From the NCBI GenBank assembly GCA_016844925.1, contig JAERTI010000036.1, positions 11,053-75,052 on the forward strand: a stretch of DNA of 64,000 nt, written 5' to 3'. Below, piece after piece: positions 18,100-30,585 of the stretch. The DNA comes from Candidatus Uhrbacteria bacterium. GTDB taxonomy: Bacteria > Patescibacteriota > Patescibacteriia > UBA9934 > GWF2-40-263. Numbering within the stretch: position 1 is the first letter of the stretch; the number at the start of each line of letters is the position of its first letter. Made by a program: the position numbers and the translations under genes. The notes under the pieces were generated by a model that searched no databases, was not told where the DNA came from, and saw only the letters and a list, made by a program, of their open reading frames with translations.

Positions 18100-19209
18100 C
18101 TAGGCCGCGAAGCGGTTCTCGCTCGCCGCCTCGACCATCTTGGCCACCTGCAGGCCGTAGGGCTTGTCGGTGTCCAGGTTGGTCGGGAAGAAGGACACGG
18201 CGTTCTCGCCGCCGTTGGTGTCGATCTCCTCGATCAGGCCGGCCGTGTGGCTGGCGCGGGTGATGCGGGGCAGCTCGACGTCCTCGCCCAGGTCGGCCAC
18301 CTTCACGCCGAAGGCGCTGTGGGGGATGAGCTGGATGGTGTCGTCGTCGATGCCGACGCTCACGGGGATCGCGGCGTACTCGCCGTCGTCCAGGGACAGG
18401 ATGAAGTTGTCGGTGTTGTCGACGCCCAGGGAGATCTCGGTCACGTTGCCCGGGGTCTGGAACTCGGCCCAGGCCAGCTCGTCCATCTCGCCGGAGAGGT
18501 ACTTGCTGATCTGCTCGGCGCTGACCACGTTCACCACGTTGGTGCCGTAGACGGACTCGAGCAGGAAGCGCGGGGAGTTGGCGTTGACCAGGGTGTTGTC
18601 GACGGTGTCGACGAAGTCGGAGCCGATGACCTTGTAGGACTCCGTGTCCTTGGAGATCATGCCGACCTTGGTGCGGACGCTGTCGCGGCCGATCAGGAGC
18701 AGCGTGGTCGCCTCGTTCTCGGAGCCGACGATGGTGCGGGTCTCGGAGTCGACGTACTGGTCGAAGCGCGCCTGCATGGCCCGCTCGGTCCAGCTGCCCT
18801 CGTAGTCCTGGCCCCAGACGCCGAAGTCGACGTTCTGGTCCATGGCGGTCACGGCGAAGCCGTAGCGCCAGTTCTTGCCCTTGTAGCGGCTCAGCAGCTC
18901 GGTCTTGTCGAGCGTGGCCTGGGCCTCGGTCAGGGACATGCCCTCGGGGGTGTCGACGATCGCGACGATCTGCCGCTTGTGGTCGCTGGCCTTGCTGTCC
19001 TCGCTCAGCTTGAGCGAGTTGTCGCCGTCGGCCACGATGGCCACGGGGTTCAGGCCCTGGTCCTGGATGAAGTCGGTCACGTGGTCGAACTGGCCCTCGA
19101 CGGCCAGGAGCTTGACGCCGCTCTTGTCCTCGTAGGTGTCGAGCTTGAGCGAGCCGATCTTCGGCTTCGTGGCGGCGAGGAGGGCGAGCGAGATGACGAT
19201 CCGGTTCAT
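18100..19209 (-). CDS. GC-rich secreted hypothetical protein (~369 aa) with signal peptide MNRIVISLALLAATKPKIGS
   Basis: ORF track 18100..19287, trimmed to the Met before the signal peptide. Promoter TTGACA..TATAGT at ~19300-19330 with a ~120-nt 5' UTR. The + strand 402-aa ORF 18037..19245 is antisense junk (G/V/D/H-rich). Confidence 0.6.
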   Translation of the reverse strand: MNRIVISLALLAATKPKIGSLKLDTYEDKSGVKLLAVEGQFDHVTDFIQDQGLNPVAIVADGDNSLKLSEDSKASDHKRQIVAIVDTPEGMSLTEAQATLDKTELLSRYKGKNWRYGFAVTAMDQNVDFGVWGQDYEGSWTERAMQARFDQYVDSETRTIVGSENEATTLLLIGRDSVRTKVGMISKDTESYKVIGSDFVDTVDNTLVNANSPRFLLESVYGTNVVNVVSAEQISKYLSGEMDELAWAEFQTPGNVTEISLGVDNTDNFILSLDDGEYAAIPVSVGIDDDTIQLIPHSAFGVKVADLGEDVELPRITRASHTAGLIEEIDTNGGENAVSFFPTNLDTDKPYGLQVAKMVEAASENRFAA

Positions 19210-19471
19210 TGGGAGTTCTCCAGTGTCCGCAGGCGGTTTGGTTGATGCCTTTGGACGTCTCTGCACACCAGTGAACTGCACTGGCACAGTGTTGCCCGTA
19301 TTCGGGACGAACGGCGGGAATACTATAGGAACCCTCTTAGGGTGTCAAGAGATCTGCCCGGGGATAAGTATTTAGCCCTTGTTTTAGGAAAAAAATCGGT
19401 TTTTCTCAGTAAAGTGATTAAGTGCAACGTTTTTACCTCAACGATGAAAAGCGATGCTACAATAAACTTCT

Positions 19472-20617: not shown

Positions 20618-21883
20618 GTGACGCAGAAGCTGTTCTATCCAGACAAGGCGCTGAACTTCAGGCCGCTTCCGGAAGTGATGACCCTCATCACCAAGATGGG
20701 GCAGGAATTTAGGCGCCAGACTGAGGTGATTCACCTCCACGAGGACGACGCCTTCTACTTCGCCTACCTCCACACCTACCAGAGCCCTGACGCTCTAGGT
20801 TCGATGGAGTTCAATCAGCGCATGTCCAGATTCGTCGGCCTCGCCGTCGATATCGTGGAGCTCATGATCCGAGAGCACTTCCGCCCCATGGGCGACCTTC
20901 TCTCACTTCACAGCGACATCGCCAACTGCCTCGAACCCATCGAGCTGCTCATCATCGCCACCACCGACCCGGGTGCTGGCGCTTCCCCCCTGGACTTCAG
21001 AAGGCACTTCGAGGCGAGACGGAACCTCGCCATCGCCCTGCAGATCTACGAGATCGAGAAGTGTGACCCAGAGTACTGGGTCGCCAAGGACCTCAGGCAC
21101 ATCGAACAGCTCTGCTGGGGGCGCCTCTTCCTTCGCGGTGTTTCACAGACCATCTGGTTTACCACGCAAATCCCGGAGGATGGGAAGAGTCCCTGCAACA
21201 ACATCAAGCTCGCGTTTGCCAAAAGGCGCGCCAACCGCTTCAGAAGAGAATTCGATCCGACAAAGGGGCCCGTCATGGTCTCGTCCATGATGTGCCGCGT
21301 CGTAAGAATCTCGCGGAATCGTCGACTCATCATCTACGTCGTCAACCGCCGCAAGCGCATCTTCTCCACCCTGCTCAAGATGGAGCGTGGACGAGAACTG
21401 CGTGACCGTCGCGGGTGGAAGTACGTGGTTGTAGGGGTACAGACTGGCAACAAGATCCGCCCTGCCAAGCGAAGCGACGCGGAAGCGTTTGTTGCCTTCA
21501 CGCAAGAGCAACTCTGGAATCCACCTCTGTTCCACGAACCCGACGAATCCGCAGAGAACCCTGACAGCGACAAGGACTACTGGGACCGCAAGATCGTCGG
21601 TCGTTACCATCGAAAAGACAACGGTCGAGTCGTGGGCGCTGCCACCGAACAGCTGGTCACCACCATCCGTGACCATCTCAGCGACAAGTACTCACGAAGC
21701 AATCGCAACCACGAGATGTATCGACACCTTCAGGTGCTCAACCACCTCGGCCCTCTCTGGTTCCCCTCCACACGAGAGCACCTCCAACACCTCAAGTCCG
21801 TCCGCCTCCCAGGCTACGGCGTGAACTGGTACGGCCCCGCCACCAGGGAGACGCTCTGGAACTGGTGGCTCAGCCAGCTCTGA
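20618..21883 (+). CDS. GC-rich hypothetical protein (421 aa), GTG start
   Basis: TTGACG-N17-TAAAGT at 20552-20585; GAGGAG-N5-GTG; terminator CCCGCTTACGCAAGGCGGG+TTTTTTG at 21890-21915. No confident domain assignment. Confidence 0.5.
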   Translation: MTQKLFYPDKALNFRPLPEVMTLITKMGQEFRRQTEVIHLHEDDAFYFAYLHTYQSPDALGSMEFNQRMSRFVGLAVDIVELMIREHFRPMGDLLSLHSDIANCLEPIELLIIATTDPGAGASPLDFRRHFEARRNLAIALQIYEIEKCDPEYWVAKDLRHIEQLCWGRLFLRGVSQTIWFTTQIPEDGKSPCNNIKLAFAKRRANRFRREFDPTKGPVMVSSMMCRVVRISRNRRLIIYVVNRRKRIFSTLLKMERGRELRDRRGWKYVVVGVQTGNKIRPAKRSDAEAFVAFTQEQLWNPPLFHEPDESAENPDSDKDYWDRKIVGRYHRKDNGRVVGAATEQLVTTIRDHLSDKYSRSNRNHEMYRHLQVLNHLGPLWFPSTREHLQHLKSVRLPGYGVNWYGPATRETLWNWWLSQL

Positions 21884-21972
21884 GCCCCACACCCCCGCTT
21901 ACGCAAGGCGGGTTTTTTGATTGACAACCATGTAAGAAACAACTACGTTGACCACCCTGAACAGGAGAAAGG

Positions 21973-22296
21973 ATGGATCGGTTACAAGAGCTGGATGACC
22001 AGCTCTACGCACTTCACCATGACCATGTGCTTCACGGTGCCACGCTCGTCGAACACCACGAAGACGGCACGCAGTCGCGTGGACGTATCAGCAGCACAGG
22101 ACACGGATACGGTGAACTCGGACTATGGTGGCACAACGAAGATGATCGTCATCGACAGGCCTGCCTGAGTCACAGCAGCTGGAACTTCTCCAGAACGGGG
22201 AACGAGATTCGTTTCAGTAGGACTGGCCCTGACCGGAGAAGCTTCGACATCCCCCCCGGGGACGTCAACCTCTACGTCATCACCATCGCGGACTAG
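21973..22296 (+). CDS. GC-rich small hypothetical protein (107 aa, His-rich)
   Basis: TTGACA-N17-TACGTT immediately after the upstream terminator; AGGAGA RBS; terminator ending TTTTTTCTTTT at ~22300-22330. Confidence 0.45.
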   Translation: MDRLQELDDQLYALHHDHVLHGATLVEHHEDGTQSRGRISSTGHGYGELGLWWHNEDDRHRQACLSHSSWNFSRTGNEIRFSRTGPDRRSFDIPPGDVNLYVITIAD

Positions 22297-22391
22297 CACC
22301 ACGCCCAATACGGGGCGTTTTTTCTTTTATTCGCTTCCTGCTGGCGCTCTTTGCTTTCACCCGGTACAGTGATTTTAAGGAGGTAACACAC

Positions 22392-23306
22392 ATGCGTCAC
22401 GTGTACCTGGCTGCTCTTGGCACGCTCTGCCTGCTCCTCACCAGCTTCCACATCCCGAAGGACTCCACCCTGGAGCTCGGCGTGGAACACGCGAGCACCA
22501 GCGACAACGCGACGAGCCGCACCACGCGGCAGCAAGACGAGATGCTGCAGACCCTCGTCTCCCTGGCTACATACAAGCAGCGCTTGGAAGAAGCCTGCGA
22601 GGCGTTCCTGATCTCAGACGCCACGTCCGAAGATCTCTCCGCGCTCCTCACGGTCGCCGGCTCTCACCGCGACCCCGCCGCCGTCTTCGTACGTTGCGGC
22701 CTGGAAGAAGATGATGTCGAGGATCTCTTGATGAGCATGCTCAGTGACCGCATCGAGGAAGGGGACCGAGAGGCCTCCCGCATCGCCTTCGCCCTGGCTG
22801 GCACACAGTGTTCCCAGACGCCGCTACAGATCGACCGCGAGTGCGAAGACGCCGCCGATGAACTGGAGTGGCCCGTGACTCGCTGGCGCTCTTGCATCAA
22901 GGACGGCTACAGCAGCTACAAGCAGTGCAGCCTCGACGTCCTGACCGAGCACGGCGTGAGTGCCACCAAGGTGGAGGACGCTTACTTTGGCAAGTACGCC
23001 AAACAGACCAGCGACCTGGTGCACGCAGCCAAGGACGGAAGCGCCGACCCTCACGAGGTCGTCGACGAACTCATGCGCCGCGCCGAAGATCGCGTCCTGA
23101 TCGAGACCATGGGCACGGGTGCCATGGGCGCCTCCAGCTACATGATCTTCGCCCTCTCCCAGAACCTGAAGTTCCAGGGCGAGACGGAACTCCAGGAAGA
23201 GATGCAGCCCCTGCTCGACTTCTGGATCCACCGCTGCGACCTGGACCAAACCGGAGCCCTAGACGACCACGAAGTAGACGACATCCAACTCGCCTACAAC
23301 GACTGA
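22392..23306 (+). CDS. GC-rich secreted hypothetical protein (304 aa; signal peptide, acidic, Cys-containing)
   Basis: TAAGGAGG-N8-ATG; terminator GACCCCCTGAGGGTC+TTTTTCTTTTTT at 23306-23335. Confidence 0.5.
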   Translation: MRHVYLAALGTLCLLLTSFHIPKDSTLELGVEHASTSDNATSRTTRQQDEMLQTLVSLATYKQRLEEACEAFLISDATSEDLSALLTVAGSHRDPAAVFVRCGLEEDDVEDLLMSMLSDRIEEGDREASRIAFALAGTQCSQTPLQIDRECEDAADELEWPVTRWRSCIKDGYSSYKQCSLDVLTEHGVSATKVEDAYFGKYAKQTSDLVHAAKDGSADPHEVVDELMRRAEDRVLIETMGTGAMGASSYMIFALSQNLKFQGETELQEEMQPLLDFWIHRCDLDQTGALDDHEVDDIQLAYND

Positions 23307-23385
23307 CCCCCCTGAGGGTCTTTTTCTTTTTTGTTTAATCCCTGCCAACCAAACAAAAAGCCCTCGCTTTCGCGAAGGCTTTCTG

Positions 23386-23402
23386 TGGGGCGGCTAACGG
23401 GA
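23386..23402. repeat. 17-bp exact direct repeat of the 3' end of tRNA-His (TGGGGCGGCTAACGGGA = complement of ..CCCGTTAGCCGCCCCA), 151 bp downstream of the gene; att-like scar
   Basis: Identical string at 23554-23570 inside the tRNA gene. Confidence 0.7.
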
Positions 23403-23553
23403 GTCTCACGTCGCTTCGCTCCTCCAGGGGCTTGTGCCCCTAGGACGGCCTCCGGCCTGTACCCCCAGCATGTAAGGGGGTATCCCCCTTACCATCCCCC
23501 GTTCGATTCCCATTAGCCAACAGAAAACCCCCGATAAATTCGGGGGTTTTCTA

Positions 23554-23630
23554 TGGGGCGGCTAACGGGAATCGAACCCGTAATACCAGTACCACAAACT
23601 GGTGTGATAACCGTTTCACCATAGCCGCCA
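23554..23630 (-). tRNA. tRNA-His (anticodon GTG) with encoded G-1 and CCA
   Basis: Manual fold: G-1, acceptor GCGGCTA/TAGCCGC, C73, anticodon stem CCAGT/ACTGG with loop TTGTGGT. A hairpin terminator CCCCCGAATTTATCGGGGG lies at ~23527-23552. Confidence 0.8.
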
Positions 23631-23668
23631 TGGCTTGTTGAGGTTCAACGGAGCCAAGAATAGCAGAA

Positions 23669-24388
23669 CTATTCGATGGAATCAAGCATTGAATCAAGCT
23701 CGAATGTATCAGTGATCGCCTTTGCCTCAAGGAGCGCCGCCTCTGCCTCTTCTGAGTAACCGACGGTAGCCATGAGGATCCATGCATGTTCGCCATCATC
23801 TATATACTGAGACCTCACAGCTGGAGCTTCTCCGTCTCCGGAACATGGCTTTTTACACCCCCACTCGAGAACATAGCCATCCCGTCCCTTAAACTCACCC
23901 GGGGTCAAACTCTGATAAATGTCACTTGCTGTGATCCCAGCATTTGGAGAATCTGGATTCGCCTGAATATTCTCCACTGCTTCTTCAAGTGTCTCCTTGG
24001 ACGTAGAAAACTCTGTCACCACTTCATCGAAACTTCGCTCACCTTTTTCAATATCGAATATCCTCAAGAACACAGGGCTCTCGGTAAGGGGCACTTCTGG
24101 ATCTGCGTTCACGACGGTACTGCGGATAAGCATGCCATTTGCTCCACGTGGGTACACAATCGATTCTAGAATGTGCCAATCAACAGGCACGACCATGGAA
24201 TACCCATCCCCGCGCACGAGCGTCTCATCTTCTGCGTCGCGCTCGAGCTCTGATTCATAAACAAGACCCTGTGACTCTTGTTGATCTGTTGAGTCTTCCG
24301 TGTCTCCCCCCGTCCAAATGACAACTCCCACAACAAGCAGAACAAGAATGGCGGCACTTAGCAGGTATGATCGATTATCAAATTTCAT
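23669..24388 (-). CDS. Membrane-anchored acidic extracytoplasmic protein (239 aa), tandem paralog of the next gene
   Basis: N-terminal TM; shared motifs with 24395..25213 (VVP.DW, C..(P/A)C, W(I/V).(I/L)(M/T).(V/T)GY, A.A..DTFEL). Confidence 0.6.
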   Translation of the reverse strand: MKFDNRSYLLSAAILVLLVVGVVIWTGGDTEDSTDQQESQGLVYESELERDAEDETLVRGDGYSMVVPVDWHILESIVYPRGANGMLIRSTVVNADPEVPLTESPVFLRIFDIEKGERSFDEVVTEFSTSKETLEEAVENIQANPDSPNAGITASDIYQSLTPGEFKGRDGYVLEWGCKKPCSGDGEAPAVRSQYIDDGEHAWILMATVGYSEEAEAALLEAKAITDTFELDSMLDSIE

Positions 24389-24394
24389 AGAACG

Positions 24395-25213
24395 TTAATT
24401 GAGTTCAAAGCTATCCATAACCTCTTGCGCTTGCGCGAGGAGCTCATCTGCTTGATCGGAATACGCCGTGCGACCAGTAATCACCCACACTCTGTCACCT
24501 GCATCAATGTAATACGCAATCATCGCTGGTGGGGACCCTTCGATGTAACACGCCTGCTCACACACAAAGGTATTCATGTAAGCCTCTCGTCCGTCAATCT
24601 GAACTGACTCGAGCTCCACCGTAATGTGGGCATCCATGTACGCATCAATCTCTGACTGATCAGCCTCACTCAATTCGCCCCCTCCACCGAATAAGTAAAC
24701 CTGCACACCAAACCGAGCTCCATCTTCATCCATGGCCCATCTATCTACAACAGAATCCAGTGTCCACTCATCTCCTTTCTCATAATCCTCCACATGCACA
24801 GAAACTTCTGTTGGGTGCCCATAGGCCTCCTGTGCATCGAGGTTCTTGATCCACCCATGTGAGTAGCGACCACGACTTGAACGAGTGCTGCGCTCGCTTG
24901 CGCTCAGAACAAGCCAATCCTCTGGAACCAGGAGTGAAAATCCTTCACCAAGAACCACCGTCGGATCTGCGGCATCACGTTCAAGAGACAGCTGAGCTGG
25001 CTCTTCTTCTGTTTCCACCTCTTCTTCAGCTTCTTCTTCTGAAAGTACCTCCTCAATAAGATCCTCAATCTCTTGCTCAAGAAGCTCAATCTCCTCAAGA
25101 GCTAACTCTGGTGTTTCCAGAGGCGTTGGCTCAGCTTCCGGGGCCTTCACAACAGAAAGTGCCCAGACACCAATAGCCAGCAAGACGAAAAATAAACTGA
25201 TATTTCGAAACAT
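24395..25213 (-). CDS. Membrane-anchored acidic extracytoplasmic protein (272 aa) with Glu-rich coiled region, tandem paralog of 23669..24388
   Basis: ORF track plus shared C-terminal motifs. Confidence 0.6.
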   Translation of the reverse strand: MFRNISLFFVLLAIGVWALSVVKAPEAEPTPLETPELALEEIELLEQEIEDLIEEVLSEEEAEEEVETEEEPAQLSLERDAADPTVVLGEGFSLLVPEDWLVLSASERSTRSSRGRYSHGWIKNLDAQEAYGHPTEVSVHVEDYEKGDEWTLDSVVDRWAMDEDGARFGVQVYLFGGGGELSEADQSEIDAYMDAHITVELESVQIDGREAYMNTFVCEQACYIEGSPPAMIAYYIDAGDRVWVITGRTAYSDQADELLAQAQEVMDSFELN

Positions 25214-25236
25214 AAACTCTGATCAAGCAATAACGC

Positions 25237-25313
25237 TGGCGGCCCGAGTAGGATTCGAACCTACGACCTTGGGCTTAGAAGTCCCCTGCTCTATCCAGCT
25301 GAGCTATCGGGCC
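25237..25313 (-). tRNA. tRNA-Arg (anticodon TCT), CCA encoded
   Basis: Acceptor GGCCCGA/TCGGGCC, D-arm GCTC..GAGC, anticodon loop CTTCTAA, T-arm GTAGG-TTCGAAT-CCTAC. The anticodon stem has two non-Watson-Crick pairs. Confidence 0.65.
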
Positions 25314-25398
25314 AACAGCGACATTGCTTATCACGCGCGCATGGTAACCATTCTGCACAAAAAAGAAAACAGGCTCCGTGTGAGCCTGGTGTGGAGCG

Positions 25399-26076
25399 CT
25401 AGTGGCTCCGGACGATGTTGCCGACGAGCACGCGCTGCTCGCCGATCGGCTGGATCTCCTTCAGCTTCCGCTTGGCGAACCAGTCGATGTCCTTGTTGGT
25501 GCGTCCCGACAGGCTGATCAGGGGAATCCCGACCTCCGTGGAAGACTGGGCCGTCTTGATTGCCCTGTCGAGCAGGGCCGTACCAACACCATGCTCACGC
25601 CACTGGGGCCGCACGATCAGGTGCTGGATGTAGAAGTAGGCACCGCAGCGCCCCAGCTCCCGCACCACCGATGCCATCACCTGGGCTCCGACCTGTTCGT
25701 TGAGCTGATCCATGGCCAGCGGGCGTAGCTCGATCACCCCTACGGGCATCGGATGACCAGAGCTCACCACGAAGGCTACGAGGGTCTGAGCGCAGCGCAT
25801 GCGGAGAGCCTCGATGGTCTCGCGCTCGGCGCGCCGCTCGGTCCAGAGCTGCTGGACCACCCCCCCGCTGCACCAGGAACAGATCTCGTTCGCCGGCTTG
25901 CTGAGGAAGTCACGCTTGCATCCGCTGCAGCGCCACTGCTCGCCCCACGGCGCACCGCGGCGCCCCTCGACGATCATCTCCGCCAGACCCGGCACCAGAC
26001 GCTCGACACCCTGGCCCAGCCTGGCGACGTGCACTCGCTGCTCCACTCCTTCCCTCGCTACCGTGGCTACTTGCAT
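25399..26076 (-). CDS. GC-rich GNAT-family N-acetyltransferase with N-terminal Cys-rich (zinc-ribbon-like) region
   Basis: GNAT motif A (..YIQHLIVRPQWREHGVGTALLDRAI..); CSGCK...CSWCSGG; GGAGG-N5-ATG. Confidence 0.6.
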   Translation of the reverse strand: MQVATVAREGVEQRVHVARLGQGVERLVPGLAEMIVEGRRGAPWGEQWRCSGCKRDFLSKPANEICSWCSGGVVQQLWTERRAERETIEALRMRCAQTLVAFVVSSGHPMPVGVIELRPLAMDQLNEQVGAQVMASVVRELGRCGAYFYIQHLIVRPQWREHGVGTALLDRAIKTAQSSTEVGIPLISLSGRTNKDIDWFAKRKLKEIQPIGEQRVLVGNIVRSH

Positions 26077-26169
26077 CCATACCTCCGCTACAGCTCGTCC
26101 CAGTTTCTTTACCAGAACGAAGCGATGCTAGCGCAGACCCCCCCTCCTGTCAACCAAAAAACGCCCTTT

Positions 26170-27117
26170 TCAGGACGTTTTATTTTCTTCCTTAGGTTTT
26201 TTCCGAGCCCGATCATGAAACTTCTTATGCACCTCTTTCATCTTTTTGTTCGTGATGTGGGTATACACCTGGGTCGTCGTAATCGATGCGTGCCCAAGCA
26301 GGGACTGCACAGAACGAATATCCGCCCCTCCCATGAGCAGGTCCGTGGCAAACGTGTGCCGGAGCGTGTGTGGTGTAATGCGTTTGGTAATGCCCGCCTG
26401 CTTTGCATAGCGCTCCACGAGCCGCTGTACTGATCGCGACGTAAGCCCGCCTGTCTTTCCACGACCAGCTCGCGCCTTGTCGTGACAGATGAATAGGTAC
26501 TCAGACGTATCTCTTCGCTTCGCTAGATACTCTTTCAGTGCTTCTTTGGCTGTACTGGAGAGATACACGGCTCGCAACTTACCCCCCTTACCCCTCACCG
26601 TGAACTCATCTCGCTTCAAATTAATCTGTTCGATCTTCAGGTTCGAGAGCTCACTCACGCGCAAGCCCGTAGAGAAGAGCAGCTCGAGAATGGCTCGATC
26701 ACGCAACGCCACAAGATCTTTCCCAGCCGGCGCCGCTAACAATCGATCCAACTCCTCGACCTCCAAGAACGACACCTCTCGCTGCTCCTGCTTTGCGAGC
26801 TCGATCTTCTCCGGAGCCAGGGAAGTGATGTCTTCGCGCGCCAGGTATTTTAGAAATGATCGTAGAGCGATCAGGTGATAATTCTGCGTCGACTTCTTGA
26901 GCGTCTTTCCATCGCGACCAGCTACTTTCCGGTTCAGCCAAAGACGATACTTATGAATCATCTCGCTGGTAATCTCCTTGGGTTCTGGCCCCTTAGCCCA
27001 CTGAGAAAACCGTCGCAAATAAAAATGATAGTTGCGAATCGTCTTCTCCGTCCTCCCTCGCTCAACCTCTAGATATTCGAGGAACTTCGTGATCAATTTG
27101 TCGATCGTCGTGGGCAT
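26170..27117 (-). CDS. Xer-type tyrosine site-specific recombinase (XerC/XerD-like)
   Basis: C-terminal catalytic region ..HTLRHTFATDLLMGGADIRSVQSLLGHASITTTQVYTHI..; N-terminal core-binding domain. Start trimmed to MPTTIDKLI. Confidence 0.8.
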   Translation of the reverse strand: MPTTIDKLITKFLEYLEVERGRTEKTIRNYHFYLRRFSQWAKGPEPKEITSEMIHKYRLWLNRKVAGRDGKTLKKSTQNYHLIALRSFLKYLAREDITSLAPEKIELAKQEQREVSFLEVEELDRLLAAPAGKDLVALRDRAILELLFSTGLRVSELSNLKIEQINLKRDEFTVRGKGGKLRAVYLSSTAKEALKEYLAKRRDTSEYLFICHDKARAGRGKTGGLTSRSVQRLVERYAKQAGITKRITPHTLRHTFATDLLMGGADIRSVQSLLGHASITTTQVYTHITNKKMKEVHKKFHDRARKKPKEENKTS

Positions 27118-27568
27118 ATCTGCTCCTAGTATAACATCGGGGCCGTGTGATACCATGCACTCCACTATGGGAGCCGTCCTGACCCGCAGACTCCTGGCCG
27201 CCGCAACGATCTTCACCATGATCGCTTGCGGTTTTGTTTTCAGCACATCACAGAGCTGTCTGGCAGATTCCGGTGACTCAGGCTTTATCTGCACGGCCGA
27301 GGCGCTCTCAGCCCCAACAACCTGGATGGCCTCAGCAAATCACATGGCAATCCAGGCAAAGGAACTGTTCACGGTGGCAATCGTCGTGTTTACCGCCGCC
27401 ATCCTCATCACCCAAGGGCGCCGGTGGCAGCCGCCGCATACCTCACTCTGGATTGAGCGGAGAGCCCCCATACCAAACCACACATTCATCCCGCATTTAT
27501 CAGCCTCTCACGGTGGGTAGCTATCTCCCCTGAAACGCAGAACCTCTTGATTCACATGAACAGACTTT

Positions 27569-28360
27569 ATGGATAAACACCCACATACGACCCATCACAC
27601 AAAATCACTTTTTGACATCATCCCTGCCAAGCAGGCCTTCTGGCTCGGGTTTGGTACTGCCATTCTCTCCATCGGAACCCTCGGCTTCATCCTTCTTGGA
27701 AGCTGTGTCCTCCAGGGAGACTGCGCGGCTAGCGTTGTCTTCGAAGACGATGCTGAGGATGCAGATGACGACGATTACGCACCATCTGCCGCGGACCTTG
27801 CTGCAGCAGGTGCCCCAACCGTTCCAACAGCCCAAGGTGTTCCCGCTGTAGACGACGGTGATTACATCCGCGGAGACGTAGACGCTCCTATCACCATCAT
27901 TGAGTACTCCGACTTTGAGTGTCCCTACTGTGAGCGATTCCACCCAACCATGGAACAGGTCATGGAGGAGTACGATGGCCAGGTCCGTTGGGTCCTCCGC
28001 AACTTCCCACTTTCCTTCCACCCAAATGCTGAGGACGCTGGTGTCGCAGCTGAGTGTGCCGGACAGCAGGGCAAGTTCTGGGAGTACGGTGACGAGCTCT
28101 TTGCCAACCGCGCAAGCCTCGGTGAAGACTACTACGTTGAACTCGCTGGTGACTTCGATCTCAATATCAGTGAATTCACCACCTGCTACGAGGGAGACGA
28201 GGCTCGTTCCAAAGTACGTGCACAGGCCACAGGTGGTGCTGCTGCAGGTGTCACAGGAACCCCAGGAAGCTTCATCATCGATGAGGACGGTAACGCCACC
28301 CCAATCAAGGGAGCGCTGCCATACTCCTCCGTTGCTGCTGCGATCGACGCCATGCTCTAA
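27569..28360 (+). CDS. DsbA-family thiol:disulfide oxidoreductase, membrane anchored (CPYC active site)
   Basis: ..IIEYSDFECPYCERFHP..; hairpin terminator at ~28365-28395. Confidence 0.75.
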   Translation: MDKHPHTTHHTKSLFDIIPAKQAFWLGFGTAILSIGTLGFILLGSCVLQGDCAASVVFEDDAEDADDDDYAPSAADLAAAGAPTVPTAQGVPAVDDGDYIRGDVDAPITIIEYSDFECPYCERFHPTMEQVMEEYDGQVRWVLRNFPLSFHPNAEDAGVAAECAGQQGKFWEYGDELFANRASLGEDYYVELAGDFDLNISEFTTCYEGDEARSKVRAQATGGAAAGVTGTPGSFIIDEDGNATPIKGALPYSSVAAAIDAML

Positions 28361-28428
28361 GTTGATTCAAAACAGGCCCCATGGGCCTGTTTTTGTTTTC
28401 CCGCACCCATCCCTTATACTTGGAACAT

Positions 28429-30585
28429 ATGAAAAAACTATCCTATCTACTTCTTTTTTTGTTCTCTATTTTCTCGCTCTCCGCCTCACCGACGGCCGCC
28501 ATCAGCTCAAGTGAGCAGTGGTTCCAGCTTGAAAAAGGTTCATCCTCGGTCATCTACTACGACGTTGATGAGGGCCGAGATATGCTTGTTGCCGTGGGTC
28601 TAAGTGGAGAACTTATTTACTCCATGGACGATGGCGACACATGGACAGACGTCAACGAAACATCAAACACGCTCTACGCTGTTACTGAAAGTGACTTCGG
28701 TATTGTCGCCGCAGGTGAAAACGGCACAGTCGTCACCGCAGAAGATAACGAGTCCTGGAATGTTCAAACTATTGGTAGCGGGACTCTGGACATCATGGAT
28801 GTTGATTGTTCTGGAGACTACTGTGTTCTCGTCACAGACAGCGGCTATTACTACTACTCACGAGATGCTGGAGAGAGCTGGTCCACCGTCATCAGCCCTC
28901 CTTCATCAAGTAACTATCAAGGTGTGCACGTTGGCGCCTCAGGAACATTCTGGGTCTCAGGAGCCAATGGAGAACTCAAGCAAAGCTCCGCTGCCACCAT
29001 CACATCTTTCACAGAACAAACGAGTGGTTCTTCCCAGGTGCTTCTGGACGTCCACTTCCTCTCAGACGAACAGACCGGTTGGGCTGTTGGAGGGAGCGGA
29101 ACGATTGTTACTACCACAGATGGTGGAGACAACTGGACGGACGCATCTGTCGGATCAACCAACTGGTATCACATTGCAAGCAACCCCTCTGACGAAGATC
29201 ATCTCTTCATTCTTGGTGAAAGCGACATCATGGAGTCCACTGACGGCGGAAGTAGCTGGGACTCTGTCACACTTAGCTCATCCATGGCATCAGGCCTATT
29301 CTCCGGATCGATTGTTAATGGATCTCTCATTGCCGCAGGTGTCAGCAGCTCAGGTGGTGTGATCATCACCGATGACACAACGGCTCCATCAGCACCAACG
29401 AATCTTTCCACAAGCCCAAGCTCTCCATCTGCAAACCAAACGCCAACCTTGAGCTGGACCGATAGCACAGACGACAAATCCGGCATCGAGGGGTACTACG
29501 TCTATCTAGACGGCACCATGATCGACGGTGTCGAAAACGGATCTGGCGACGAGTCCTACACGTTCTCATCCCTGAGCGAAGGTGAGCACACGCTCGGCGT
29601 GATCGCCGCAGACTACGGAGAGAACGAATCTTCCATGGCGACCGTCACCTACCGCGTCGACAAGACGGGGCCAACGATTGGATCGCTCTCATCAACAACC
29701 GTTGCACCTGGCGAATCGACTATCACCAGCACCGTCACAGATGATTACGGAACCGTTGATGAATGTAACGCACATGTTGATGGGGCCACTTCTCAGGAAT
29801 ACCTACTTGAACGAGATACGCTACACATCACATTCACTCTTGAGGAAGTCGGGGAGTTCAACGTAAACATTGATTGCACCGATAGCTTTGGCAACACCAG
29901 CAACGCCAGTGAGATGATCACTGTGAGCGAGGAAACCAGCTCAGAGTCAGAAAGTTCAGAGTCGAGTGAATCGAGCTCTAGCTCATCCTCGGAAAGCAGC
30001 GAGTCGAGCTCATCTGAGTCTTCCAACGGCGGAAGCTCGAGCCCAACAGAGACCAGCGCTCCGGCCGTCGATGACTCTTCCAGCGCGGTGAGTAGTCTCT
30101 CTGAACTTTCCACGGGATCACTCATCAAGTTCGCCTGTGAAGAAGGGGCGCTCGTGAACGATCCTTGCACTGCGGTCTACTACTACGGCGCGGATGAAAA
30201 ACGTCACGCCTTCCCAAACAGCAAAGTCTACTTCACCTGGTATGAAGATTTCGACGACGTGATCGTTGTCACTCAGGACGTCATCTCTGACATTACCCTG
30301 GGCTCTAACGTGACCTACCGTCCAGGTGTCCGCATGGTGAAGTTCCTTTCTTGGAACACAGTCTACACTGTCAGCGCCGGGGGAGAGCTCCGCGCGGTTC
30401 CATCTGAAGAAGTCGCCATCGCCATGTACGGAGACGACTGGAACCAGCAGATCGATGACATCTCTGACGCGTTCTTCTCGAACTATTCGTTTGGCGACGA
30501 CCTAGAAGATGAGAACGATTACGATGCCGATGATGCCTACGGGGAGGTAGACGACATTGATGACGATATCGAGGCAAAATCTTAG
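28429..30585 (+). CDS. Secreted BNR/sialidase-like repeat beta-propeller protein with FN3-like domain and Ser/Glu-rich low-complexity linker
   Basis: Repeated S.D.G.(T/S)W motifs (SMDDGDTW, SRDAGESW, TTDGGDNW, STDGGSSW); signal peptide MKKLSYLLLFLFSIFSLSASPTAA; terminator ACGGGCCGAAAGGCCTG+TTTTTT. Confidence 0.7.
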   Translation: MKKLSYLLLFLFSIFSLSASPTAAISSSEQWFQLEKGSSSVIYYDVDEGRDMLVAVGLSGELIYSMDDGDTWTDVNETSNTLYAVTESDFGIVAAGENGTVVTAEDNESWNVQTIGSGTLDIMDVDCSGDYCVLVTDSGYYYYSRDAGESWSTVISPPSSSNYQGVHVGASGTFWVSGANGELKQSSAATITSFTEQTSGSSQVLLDVHFLSDEQTGWAVGGSGTIVTTTDGGDNWTDASVGSTNWYHIASNPSDEDHLFILGESDIMESTDGGSSWDSVTLSSSMASGLFSGSIVNGSLIAAGVSSSGGVIITDDTTAPSAPTNLSTSPSSPSANQTPTLSWTDSTDDKSGIEGYYVYLDGTMIDGVENGSGDESYTFSSLSEGEHTLGVIAADYGENESSMATVTYRVDKTGPTIGSLSSTTVAPGESTITSTVTDDYGTVDECNAHVDGATSQEYLLERDTLHITFTLEEVGEFNVNIDCTDSFGNTSNASEMITVSEETSSESESSESSESSSSSSSESSESSSSESSNGGSSSPTETSAPAVDDSSSAVSSLSELSTGSLIKFACEEGALVNDPCTAVYYYGADEKRHAFPNSKVYFTWYEDFDDVIVVTQDVISDITLGSNVTYRPGVRMVKFLSWNTVYTVSAGGELRAVPSEEVAIAMYGDDWNQQIDDISDAFFSNYSFGDDLEDENDYDADDAYGEVDDIDDDIEAKS

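Follow-up and report, generated by a model that had tools for sequence, protein, structure and literature searches.

A probable core-chromosome block encoding a tRNA-bracketed pair of predicted PsbP-fold envelope proteins beside a Xer-type recombinase

When two tRNA genes bracket a tandem pair of genes for paralogous surface proteins, and a GC-rich acetyltransferase gene and a tyrosine recombinase gene lie beside them, is the locus a mobile or switching element, or an old part of the chromosome? We addressed this question for a 64-kb stretch of contig JAERTI010000036.1 (the window), in which the minus strand encodes, in order, a Xer-type tyrosine recombinase (26170–27117, 315 aa), a zinc-ribbon GNAT acetyltransferase (25399–26076, 225 aa), tRNA-Arg(TCT) (25237–25313), paralog B (24395–25213, 272 aa), paralog A (23669–24388, 239 aa) and tRNA-His(GTG) (23554–23628). 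A preliminary description had reported these features, all of which we found in place, and had read them as a recombination-prone accessory locus. The best explanation overall is a different one: the locus is likely to be a conserved core-chromosome block of a probable bacterium of the candidate phyla radiation (CPR, or Patescibacteria) that encodes a pair of PsbP-fold proteins, and not an accessory island.

Results

Conservation of the block

We compared the window with related contigs and loci (labelled L001, L004, L010 and so on), with L004 as the sister lineage. Sister-lineage contigs (~88% DNA identity) carry DsbA–Xer–GNAT–tRNA-Arg–B–A–tRNA-His in the same order as the window, with identical gene order at all seven places shown for 15 of these contigs. 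The order Xer–(GNAT)–tRNA-Arg(TCT)–PsbP-like gene–tRNA-His is syntenic in six lineages, with the bracketed protein down to ~24–28% identity; distant lineages keep the block, but with only one homolog bracketed by these tRNAs. These include L010/L011, whose lone homolog shares 42% identity with B and 31% with A and whose GNAT is 58% identical, and L014, a metagenome-assembled genome of the Parcubacteria group and the nearest named relative of the locus. Given this relative, the window probably comes from a CPR genome of the Parcubacteria group. Two copies occur only in the window and its sister lineage, with a single copy in all other lineages compared. Because relatives carry the bracketed gene at the same site, we regard it as an old resident whose two-copy state is lineage-specific, and since DsbA–Xer–(GNAT)–tRNA-Arg–gene–tRNA-His recurs in six lineages, we assign the block to the core chromosome. 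The window itself is chromosomal, as PolA, PNPase, a YifB-type ATPase and a membrane pyrophosphatase are all encoded with equivalog-level matches, and cumulative GC skew falls monotonically across its 64 kb, which places the replication terminus outside it.

Several lineages carry rearranged versions of the block. Locus L123 (Xer 81% and GNAT 42% identical) has tRNA-His inverted and displaced by a DUF2807 gene, with an inverted 3′-half tRNA-His fragment marking the rearrangement. The GNAT is absent from L015, where a 531-aa gene lies between the PsbP-like homolog and tRNA-His; L120 has tRNA-Arg(TCT), a 6-nt gap, the PsbP-like gene and then an inverted tRNA-His; and in L121, Xer adjoins tRNA-Arg and the PsbP-like homolog is 2 kb off. 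Two other apparent differences were rejected as gene-calling artefacts. One is a ‘220-aa opposite-strand gene’ called in GC-rich sequence in the GNAT’s place in some sister contigs, which we dismissed because the DNA is collinear at ~88% identity; the other is a set of ‘different genes’ replacing the 304- and 421-aa genes in L003/L006, where the DNA is likewise collinear. Locus L015 (CAYJVP010000037.1) is labelled ‘uncultured Gammaproteobacteria’ and has the same Xer–tRNA-Arg–PsbP-like–tRNA-His block as relatives from the Parcubacteria group, with Xer 69% identical; it is probably mis-binned or mislabelled. It also carries an excisionase/MerR-like helix-turn-helix gene past tRNA-His.

The recombinase

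We next asked which kind of tyrosine recombinase the block encodes. The listed open reading frame (26170–27294) is over-extended, and the gene instead begins with the ATG at 27117, as indicated by the gene call in L001 and by a small membrane-protein gene on the opposite strand at 27155–27520 (plus), which is orthologous (tblastn, 52% identity, E = 1.6e-36) to the 123-aa gene that relatives carry between DsbA and Xer. The resulting protein matches Pfam Phage_int_SAM_1 and Phage_integrase (E = 1e-46) as well as NCBIfam profiles; it has a SAM-like N-terminal domain and a catalytic domain, no arm-binding domain, and catalytic R, K, HxxR, H and Y residues that are invariant in five lineages. Its identification as Xer-type, already made in the preliminary description, is borne out by profiles that favour Xer (XerD, 260 bits; XerC, 253.6; generic Xer, 253; XerA-type NF040815, 241) over the integron integrase (141 bits) and phage-type integrases (<50 bits). 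The XerA-type profile is the only Xer profile whose cut-off (220 bits) is passed, and the closest PDB structures are archaeal XerA and then Escherichia coli XerD.

Conservation points the same way. No other protein of the block is as conserved as the recombinase, which has the lowest ratio of nonsynonymous to synonymous divergence (dN/dS, 0.019), the same neighbours in six lineages and identities of 98% in L004, 85% in L010, 86% in L014, 81% in L123 and 69% in L015; where it is 81–86% identical, the GNAT is 42–57% and the bracketed protein 28–42% identical. Xer homologs also lie within a few kilobases of a tRNA-His with this 3′ end in at least 14 further metagenomic loci. We conclude that the protein is probably a Xer of the housekeeping type, whose dif site presumably lies in another part of the chromosome. 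The preliminary description had suggested looking for dif-like sites; none was found in the 64-kb window or next to the gene with proteobacterial, E. coli, B. subtilis and approximate XerA/XerH consensus sequences or a generic 11-6-11 palindrome. The window also contained no second recombinase, and no conserved palindrome adjoins Xer. Single-recombinase Xer systems, namely XerA, XerS/difSL and XerH/difH, have been reviewed (PMC5357621, PMC2958812).

Local divergence and the question of switching

The segment carrying A and B is the most divergent stretch of the ~20-kb shared block (75–82% nucleotide identity versus ~92%), with synonymous divergence (dS) of ~0.9 versus 0.2–0.44 for neighbouring genes, and the flanking tRNAs are 100% conserved. 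Small insertions beside tRNA-His differ among relatives (VapBC, the 531-aa gene, the DUF2807 gene and inverted tRNA-His). Such signs could mean that the adjacent Xer, 1 kb from the duplicated surface-protein genes, switches them as part of a recombination-prone accessory or contingency locus, as when Xer-like recombinases invert the vsp, vpma and mba surface-antigen loci of Mycoplasma and Ureaplasma (PMC3599477). However, A and B are arranged in tandem, both facing the same way with 6 nt between them; repeat searches (seed 8 and seed 10) revealed no direct or inverted repeats around them or the upstream region, and the sister contigs shown contained no orientation variants. With no recombinase-site repeats at A/B and the same order in the sister contigs, switching of the Mycoplasma type is therefore unsupported.

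The same explanation can take the form of a tRNA-bounded integrated island, given that the tRNA-His 3′ end recurs downstream in both direct and inverted form and that tRNA-His is inverted in L120 and L123, the latter with its inverted fragment left behind. Yet the 17-nt tRNA-His repeat encloses 137 nt and no gene, no second copy of the tRNA-Arg 3′ end was found, and A/B, GNAT and Xer occupy the same site in relatives. The bracketed gene has, moreover, a native-like GC content at third codon positions (GC3, 0.45–0.47 for A and B), and purifying selection is very strong on the neighbouring Xer, which is syntenic with housekeeping genes. We therefore judge an accessory locus of either form improbable. 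What stands of the preliminary description in this respect are signs of local recombination, namely the divergence of A/B, the tRNA-His copies and the insertions; accessory status does not, in view of the synteny in six lineages, a Xer that is the most conserved protein and the lack of flanking repeats. That description had itself set a chromosomal Xer in a syntenic and invariant locus against its proposal, and we found the Xer and the synteny, but not invariance.

The PsbP-fold protein pair

A and B are 30% identical over 197 aa (BLASTP, E = 9e-23), including shared C-terminal motifs, which upholds the paralogy described earlier. They are also acidic and apparently membrane-anchored, as had been proposed, with Asp plus Glu fractions of 0.20 and 0.23 and a hydrophobic helix at the N terminus of each; surface exposure is predicted. 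Neither had a match in Pfam at E ≤ 0.1, in NCBIfam at E ≤ 0.001 or among PADLOC families, and neither falls into a curated family (Pfam PsbP, DcrB, DUF1795 and similar). Their shared domain nevertheless has the PsbP/Mog1-like fold, an alpha-beta-alpha sandwich with a central antiparallel sheet. In A it follows the transmembrane helix and an acidic linker and carries a cysteine-motif variant, WGCxxxC; in B it follows the transmembrane helix and a long, Glu-rich helical linker and carries the motif CxxxCYIEG.

The corresponding family comprises 35 representatives at 50% clustering, and its hidden Markov model matches A at E = 9e-59. Nearly all members are 210–260 aa long, apart from one 168-aa fragment and one 2962-aa protein. 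The motif VPxxW is invariant and CxxxCYIEG near-invariant. An N-terminal hydrophobic helix is predicted in A, B and nearly all members, and a lipobox-type cysteine occurs in four of them (P0010, P0011, P0014 and P0030), which together predict an extracytoplasmic location. The family is a small, previously unannotated one of PsbP-fold proteins that are probably extracytoplasmic. Both copies are under purifying selection, with dN/dS relative to the sister lineage of 0.09 for A and 0.14 for B.

How did the two copies arise? The ancestral state would have been one PsbP-like gene between tRNA-Arg(TCT) and tRNA-His(GTG). B groups with the single-copy orthologs and is the ortholog of the relatives’ single-copy gene; A may be a duplicate that has diverged fast or else a paralog of older origin. 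In a neighbour-joining tree, A groups with P0019 and away from B; A and P0019 share the motif variant WGCxKxC, and P0019 is a single copy in the same slot in L123. These observations, along with the elevated dS of A/B, would fit an older paralog that was lost differentially elsewhere, or import of an allele through homologous recombination anchored on the invariant tRNAs. However, A is no closer to P0019 (28% identity) than to B (30%) or to the L010 protein (31%), its grouping with P0019 is likely to reflect long-branch attraction, and no lineage other than the window’s (window and sister) has two copies. We consider an older or imported A possible but the less probable course.

The acetyltransferase and its GC3 excess

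The gene between Xer and tRNA-Arg encodes a GNAT protein (Pfam Acetyltransf_1, 25.6 bits, above cut-off). The GC-rich composition and N-terminal cysteine cluster noted earlier were both evident: GC is 0.66 and GC3 0.85, versus GC3 of 0.48–0.57 for housekeeping genes, and the four cysteines of the zinc ribbon (C50xxC53...C66xxC69), together with the acetyl-CoA motif Q/RxxGxG, are invariant across lineages. A canonical GGAGG precedes the ATG by 5 nt. The AlphaFold2 model had a predicted local distance difference test score of 49. A lead towards ESCO1/2 acetyltransferases, whose relative Eco1 also carries a zinc finger, was set aside as a weak Pfam match (E = 0.03, below cut-off) unsupported by PDB searches.

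Because GNAT toxins can look like this, the preliminary description had called the protein toxin-like. The GNAT domain, a GC3 of 0.85 against ~0.5 and the insertion of VapBC modules nearby in sister strains would all suit a toxin of a GNAT/ribbon-helix-helix (RHH) toxin–antitoxin module, or else a recently acquired foreign gene. However, the flanking sequence contains no partner or antitoxin open reading frame: the 93 bp upstream hold a terminator and a promoter-like site conserved in relatives (TTGACA-17-TAGCAT, 26125–26153, minus), and tRNA-Arg lies downstream, past a terminator-like hairpin and T-run (25370–25388, minus). With its own promoter and terminator and no partner, the GNAT is therefore not the toxin of a toxin–antitoxin pair. 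At 225 aa with a conserved N-terminal zinc ribbon, it also had no PADLOC hit, and in a PDB profile search TacT entries (E of 0.4–0.9) scored no better than polyamine and aminoglycoside acetyltransferases. As for foreign origin, the gene sits at this site in four lineages, with identity as low as 42%, and shows a GC3 excess in all (0.86, 0.67, 0.73 and 0.70 in relatives versus ~0.4–0.6 for neighbours). A toxin or a recent arrival is hence very improbable, and the GNAT is best regarded as a putatively independently transcribed, conserved neighbour.

The 304- and 421-aa genes beyond tRNA-His have the same persistent GC3 excess. Since the excess persists across lineages, recent horizontal transfer is not the explanation; biased gene conversion and selection on synonymous sites are possibilities. 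Overall, GC3 of 0.78–0.97 versus ~0.5 was observed at window positions 25399–26076, 22392–23306, 20618–21883 and 18100–19287, with orthologs in L004, L010, L014 and L123; the excess persists at 42–58% protein identity, and dS of these genes is low (~0.2).

A proposed tRNA-punctuated arrangement

The spacing between the tRNAs and the bracketed genes raises a question of expression. Both tRNAs were identified by ARAGORN and Rfam (~64 bits each), with CCA encoded in both and G-1 also encoded in tRNA-His. All four genes lie on one strand with spacers of 23 nt from tRNA-Arg to the B start codon, 6 nt from the B stop to the A start and 40 nt from the A stop to tRNA-His, the layout of a tRNA-punctuated operon. 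From CCA to start codon, the spacer is 23 nt in the window and L004, 27 nt in L014, 7 nt in L010, 3 nt in L015 and 6 nt in L120, and GGAGG, present before the GNAT, is absent from all six. A promoter and terminator scan between tRNA-Arg and tRNA-His gave no match. A start codon 3–27 nt past the tRNA-Arg CCA in five lineages leads us to infer co-transcription and release of the mRNA by tRNA processing.

Under this scheme, B and A would be transcribed from the tRNA-Arg promoter as a tRNA–mRNA precursor, and 3′ maturation of tRNA-Arg would leave an mRNA with a very short leader and no Shine–Dalgarno sequence. A would then be translated by coupling to B, 6 nt past its stop. The exported proteins may be disulfide-bonded by the neighbouring DsbA-like enzyme and could act as envelope scaffold or ligand-binding modules, as DcrB, LpqN and MTC28 do. 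That enzyme (27569–28360, plus) is a membrane-anchored DsbA-like thiol–disulfide oxidoreductase with Pfam Thioredoxin_4 and DSBA matches and, by synteny, a conserved neighbour. The E. coli thrU-tyrU-glyT-thrT-tufB operon is an example of a tRNA–mRNA co-transcript. In mitochondria, tRNA punctuation yields leaderless mRNAs (PMC5716156).

tRNA-His probably has a promoter of its own as well. A promoter-like TTGATT-17-TATTCT (23657–23685, minus) lies upstream of tRNA-His, overlaps the end of A and is kept as TTGATC-17-TATCCT in L010 and L014; it was read from the sequences and scores below the threshold of the consensus scan.

The tRNA-His flank

Past tRNA-His, the minus strand carries a terminator-like palindromic hairpin with A- and T-tracts (23517–23557), a 137-nt segment (23386–23522) and a second terminator-like hairpin (23354–23385) orthologous to one in L010. 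Over the 17 nt at its 3′ end, the segment repeats the tRNA-His 3′ end exactly (0 such matches expected by chance), and at its 5′ end that tRNA terminus recurs in inverted form. It is predicted to fold at −72 kcal/mol (z = −4.6 on the tRNA strand), with a closing helix that reproduces the tRNA-His acceptor/T minihelix, including G-1:C73 and CCA, and it is ~96% conserved in the sister lineage, with G–C to G–U changes in two stems. The segment is either a rearrangement scar or a structured RNA mimicking tRNA-His; as an RNA, it would plausibly be a substrate of RNase P and possibly of histidyl-tRNA synthetase.

This layout was found in 19 of the 103 loci that share this tRNA-His 3′ end. A metagenome scan with the 17-mer returned 102 loci, none of which encodes the PsbP-like family, and the 17-mer is far more widespread than that family. 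A scan of viral contigs for attP with the same 17-mer revealed phage tRNA arrays only. A further case considered and rejected was L034, where repeats 3.6 kb apart surround an ABC transporter and a TrmB-like gene but no integrase.

A second kind of element, ‘type 1’, trails tRNA-His in five loci of other lineages (L010:12039–12202, L014:8867–9031, L065:509–664, L046:6181–6336(-) and L052:326–454(-)). Its members have in common the motifs GGTTCGAT, GAGTGAGCG, CGAGCGA and ATAT-hairpin-ATAT, and in L010 and L065 the two ends pair into at least 12 bp, a helix that mimics the tRNA-His acceptor/T minihelix with CCA. Covariation, assessed on four sequences only, was above controls: 92% of cells were paired versus 78% in shuffles, double-sided changes affected 15 of 38 pairs versus 7.8 in shuffles and 1–6 in slid controls, and the observed score was reached by 0 of 500 shuffles. 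A covariance model of type 1 found one further member and did not match the window element, so that homology of the two types is not supported, and Rfam contained no family besides tRNA for either.

Taken jointly, that 3′ processing of tRNA-Arg makes a near-leaderless envelope mRNA and that the segment trailing tRNA-His represents a new class of tRNA-His-mimicking structured RNA is a proposal we rate as unlikely.

Two observations were made beside these hairpins. In sister strains, a PIN/MazE (VapBC-type) toxin–antitoxin pair that the window lacks is inserted just past the second hairpin after tRNA-His, at a point between 23354 and 23330 in window coordinates (L004:11873–12503). In addition, the loop of the terminator hairpin is flipped between the window (23523–23551, AATTTAT) and the sister lineage (L004:11670–11695, ATAAATT), with an identical stem.

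Other variable features

Further differences were observed elsewhere in the window and its relatives. A gene of HNH/zinc-finger type (~101–103 aa, MPYKN.EDLY...CANCHRRK) adjoins tRNA genes in L010 (10789–11100), where it overlaps the tRNA-Arg start, and in L034 (4518–4823(-)), and is absent from the window. The 734-aa product of positions 28381–30585 (+) is secreted and BNR/Ycf48-like, and it combines Ig-like domains with a Ser/Glu-rich repeat tract. Its gene is intact in the window and in L005, L007 and L123, is not called in L003/L004 and is missing from L010 and L014. An IS1595-family transposase lies in the sister lineage (L004:17611–18399, corresponding to ~18000 of the window) between the 369-aa and DUF3307 genes and is absent from the window. 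Finally, a private 395-bp segment (21931–22326) between the 421-aa and 304-aa genes is absent from the sister lineage and contains a 107-aa open reading frame (21973–22296) without a family match.

Discussion

Our results suggest that this locus is largely ordinary: a conserved chromosomal block that encodes a housekeeping Xer and, next to it, PsbP-fold envelope proteins of a new sequence family, with a putatively tRNA-punctuated layout and a scar-rich tRNA-His flank. Several points weigh against this account. The recombinase scores below the equivalog cut-offs for XerD (260 versus 329.6 bits) and XerC (253.6 versus 335 bits). The dS of A/B is 2–4 times that of neighbouring genes, which could reflect allelic exchange rather than simple vertical descent, and A, which is about equidistant (28–31%) from B, the single-copy orthologs and P0019, stands apart from B in the neighbour-joining tree, so that the duplication may be recent or old. 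Members of the PsbP-like fold family differ in function, and the disulfide is putative. For expression, the spacer from tRNA-Arg to the gene is 61 nt in L123, tRNA-His seems to have its own promoter, and it is the spacing that suggests co-transcription and mRNA maturation dependent on tRNA processing.

A cautionary lesson follows, in that tRNAs, a recombinase, duplicated surface genes and a gene of odd GC content can mimic a mobile island where, as here, an old syntenic block is present. The analysis also defines a previously unannotated PsbP-fold envelope family in CPR-like bacteria; little is known of the cell-surface biology of these organisms, on which their episymbiotic lifestyle probably depends to a large extent. 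The locus also offers a testable case of bacterial mRNA maturation by tRNA processing, which, if true, would be a bacterial counterpart to mitochondrial tRNA punctuation conserved over deep divergence. The tRNA-His-derived element and the persistent GC3 excess could, if they hold, outweigh the original finding.

Comparison with known systems

Known systems resemble parts of the locus to differing degrees. Like the inversion loci of Mycoplasma and Ureaplasma (PMC3599477), it places a Xer-family recombinase beside paralogous surface-protein genes in a reduced-genome bacterium; unlike them, it has no inverted-repeat sites, two paralogs in tandem orientation and no orientation variants in the assemblies compared. 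The recombinase resembles those of the single-Xer systems (XerA, XerS and XerH) in its size of ~300 aa, its SAM-like and catalytic domains and its complete catalytic set, but it differs from XerS in having no dif-like site beside its gene and from archaeal XerA in being bacterial (CPR). With TacT, AtaT and KacT, the GNAT shares the fold and the acetyl-CoA motif, whereas it has an extra conserved zinc ribbon and a stable syntenic position, and neither an antitoxin nor specific sequence similarity to them.

As in the tufB operon and mitochondrial punctuation, a coding gene comes directly after a tRNA on the same strand, too close for a promoter to fit between them, and a second tRNA follows; here, however, the spacer is only 3–27 nt without a Shine–Dalgarno sequence, and the arrangement is conserved across a bacterial clade. 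A and B, for their part, are only 7–15% identical in structural alignments to DcrB, mycobacterial LpqN and MTC28, cyanobacterial PsbP/CyanoP and DUF1795-type proteins. In contrast to these known PsbP/Mog1-fold proteins, they have their own CxxxCYIEG and VPxxW motifs and a long acidic linker, and, unlike PsbP/Mog1-fold envelope proteins at large, their family is confined to a small clade.

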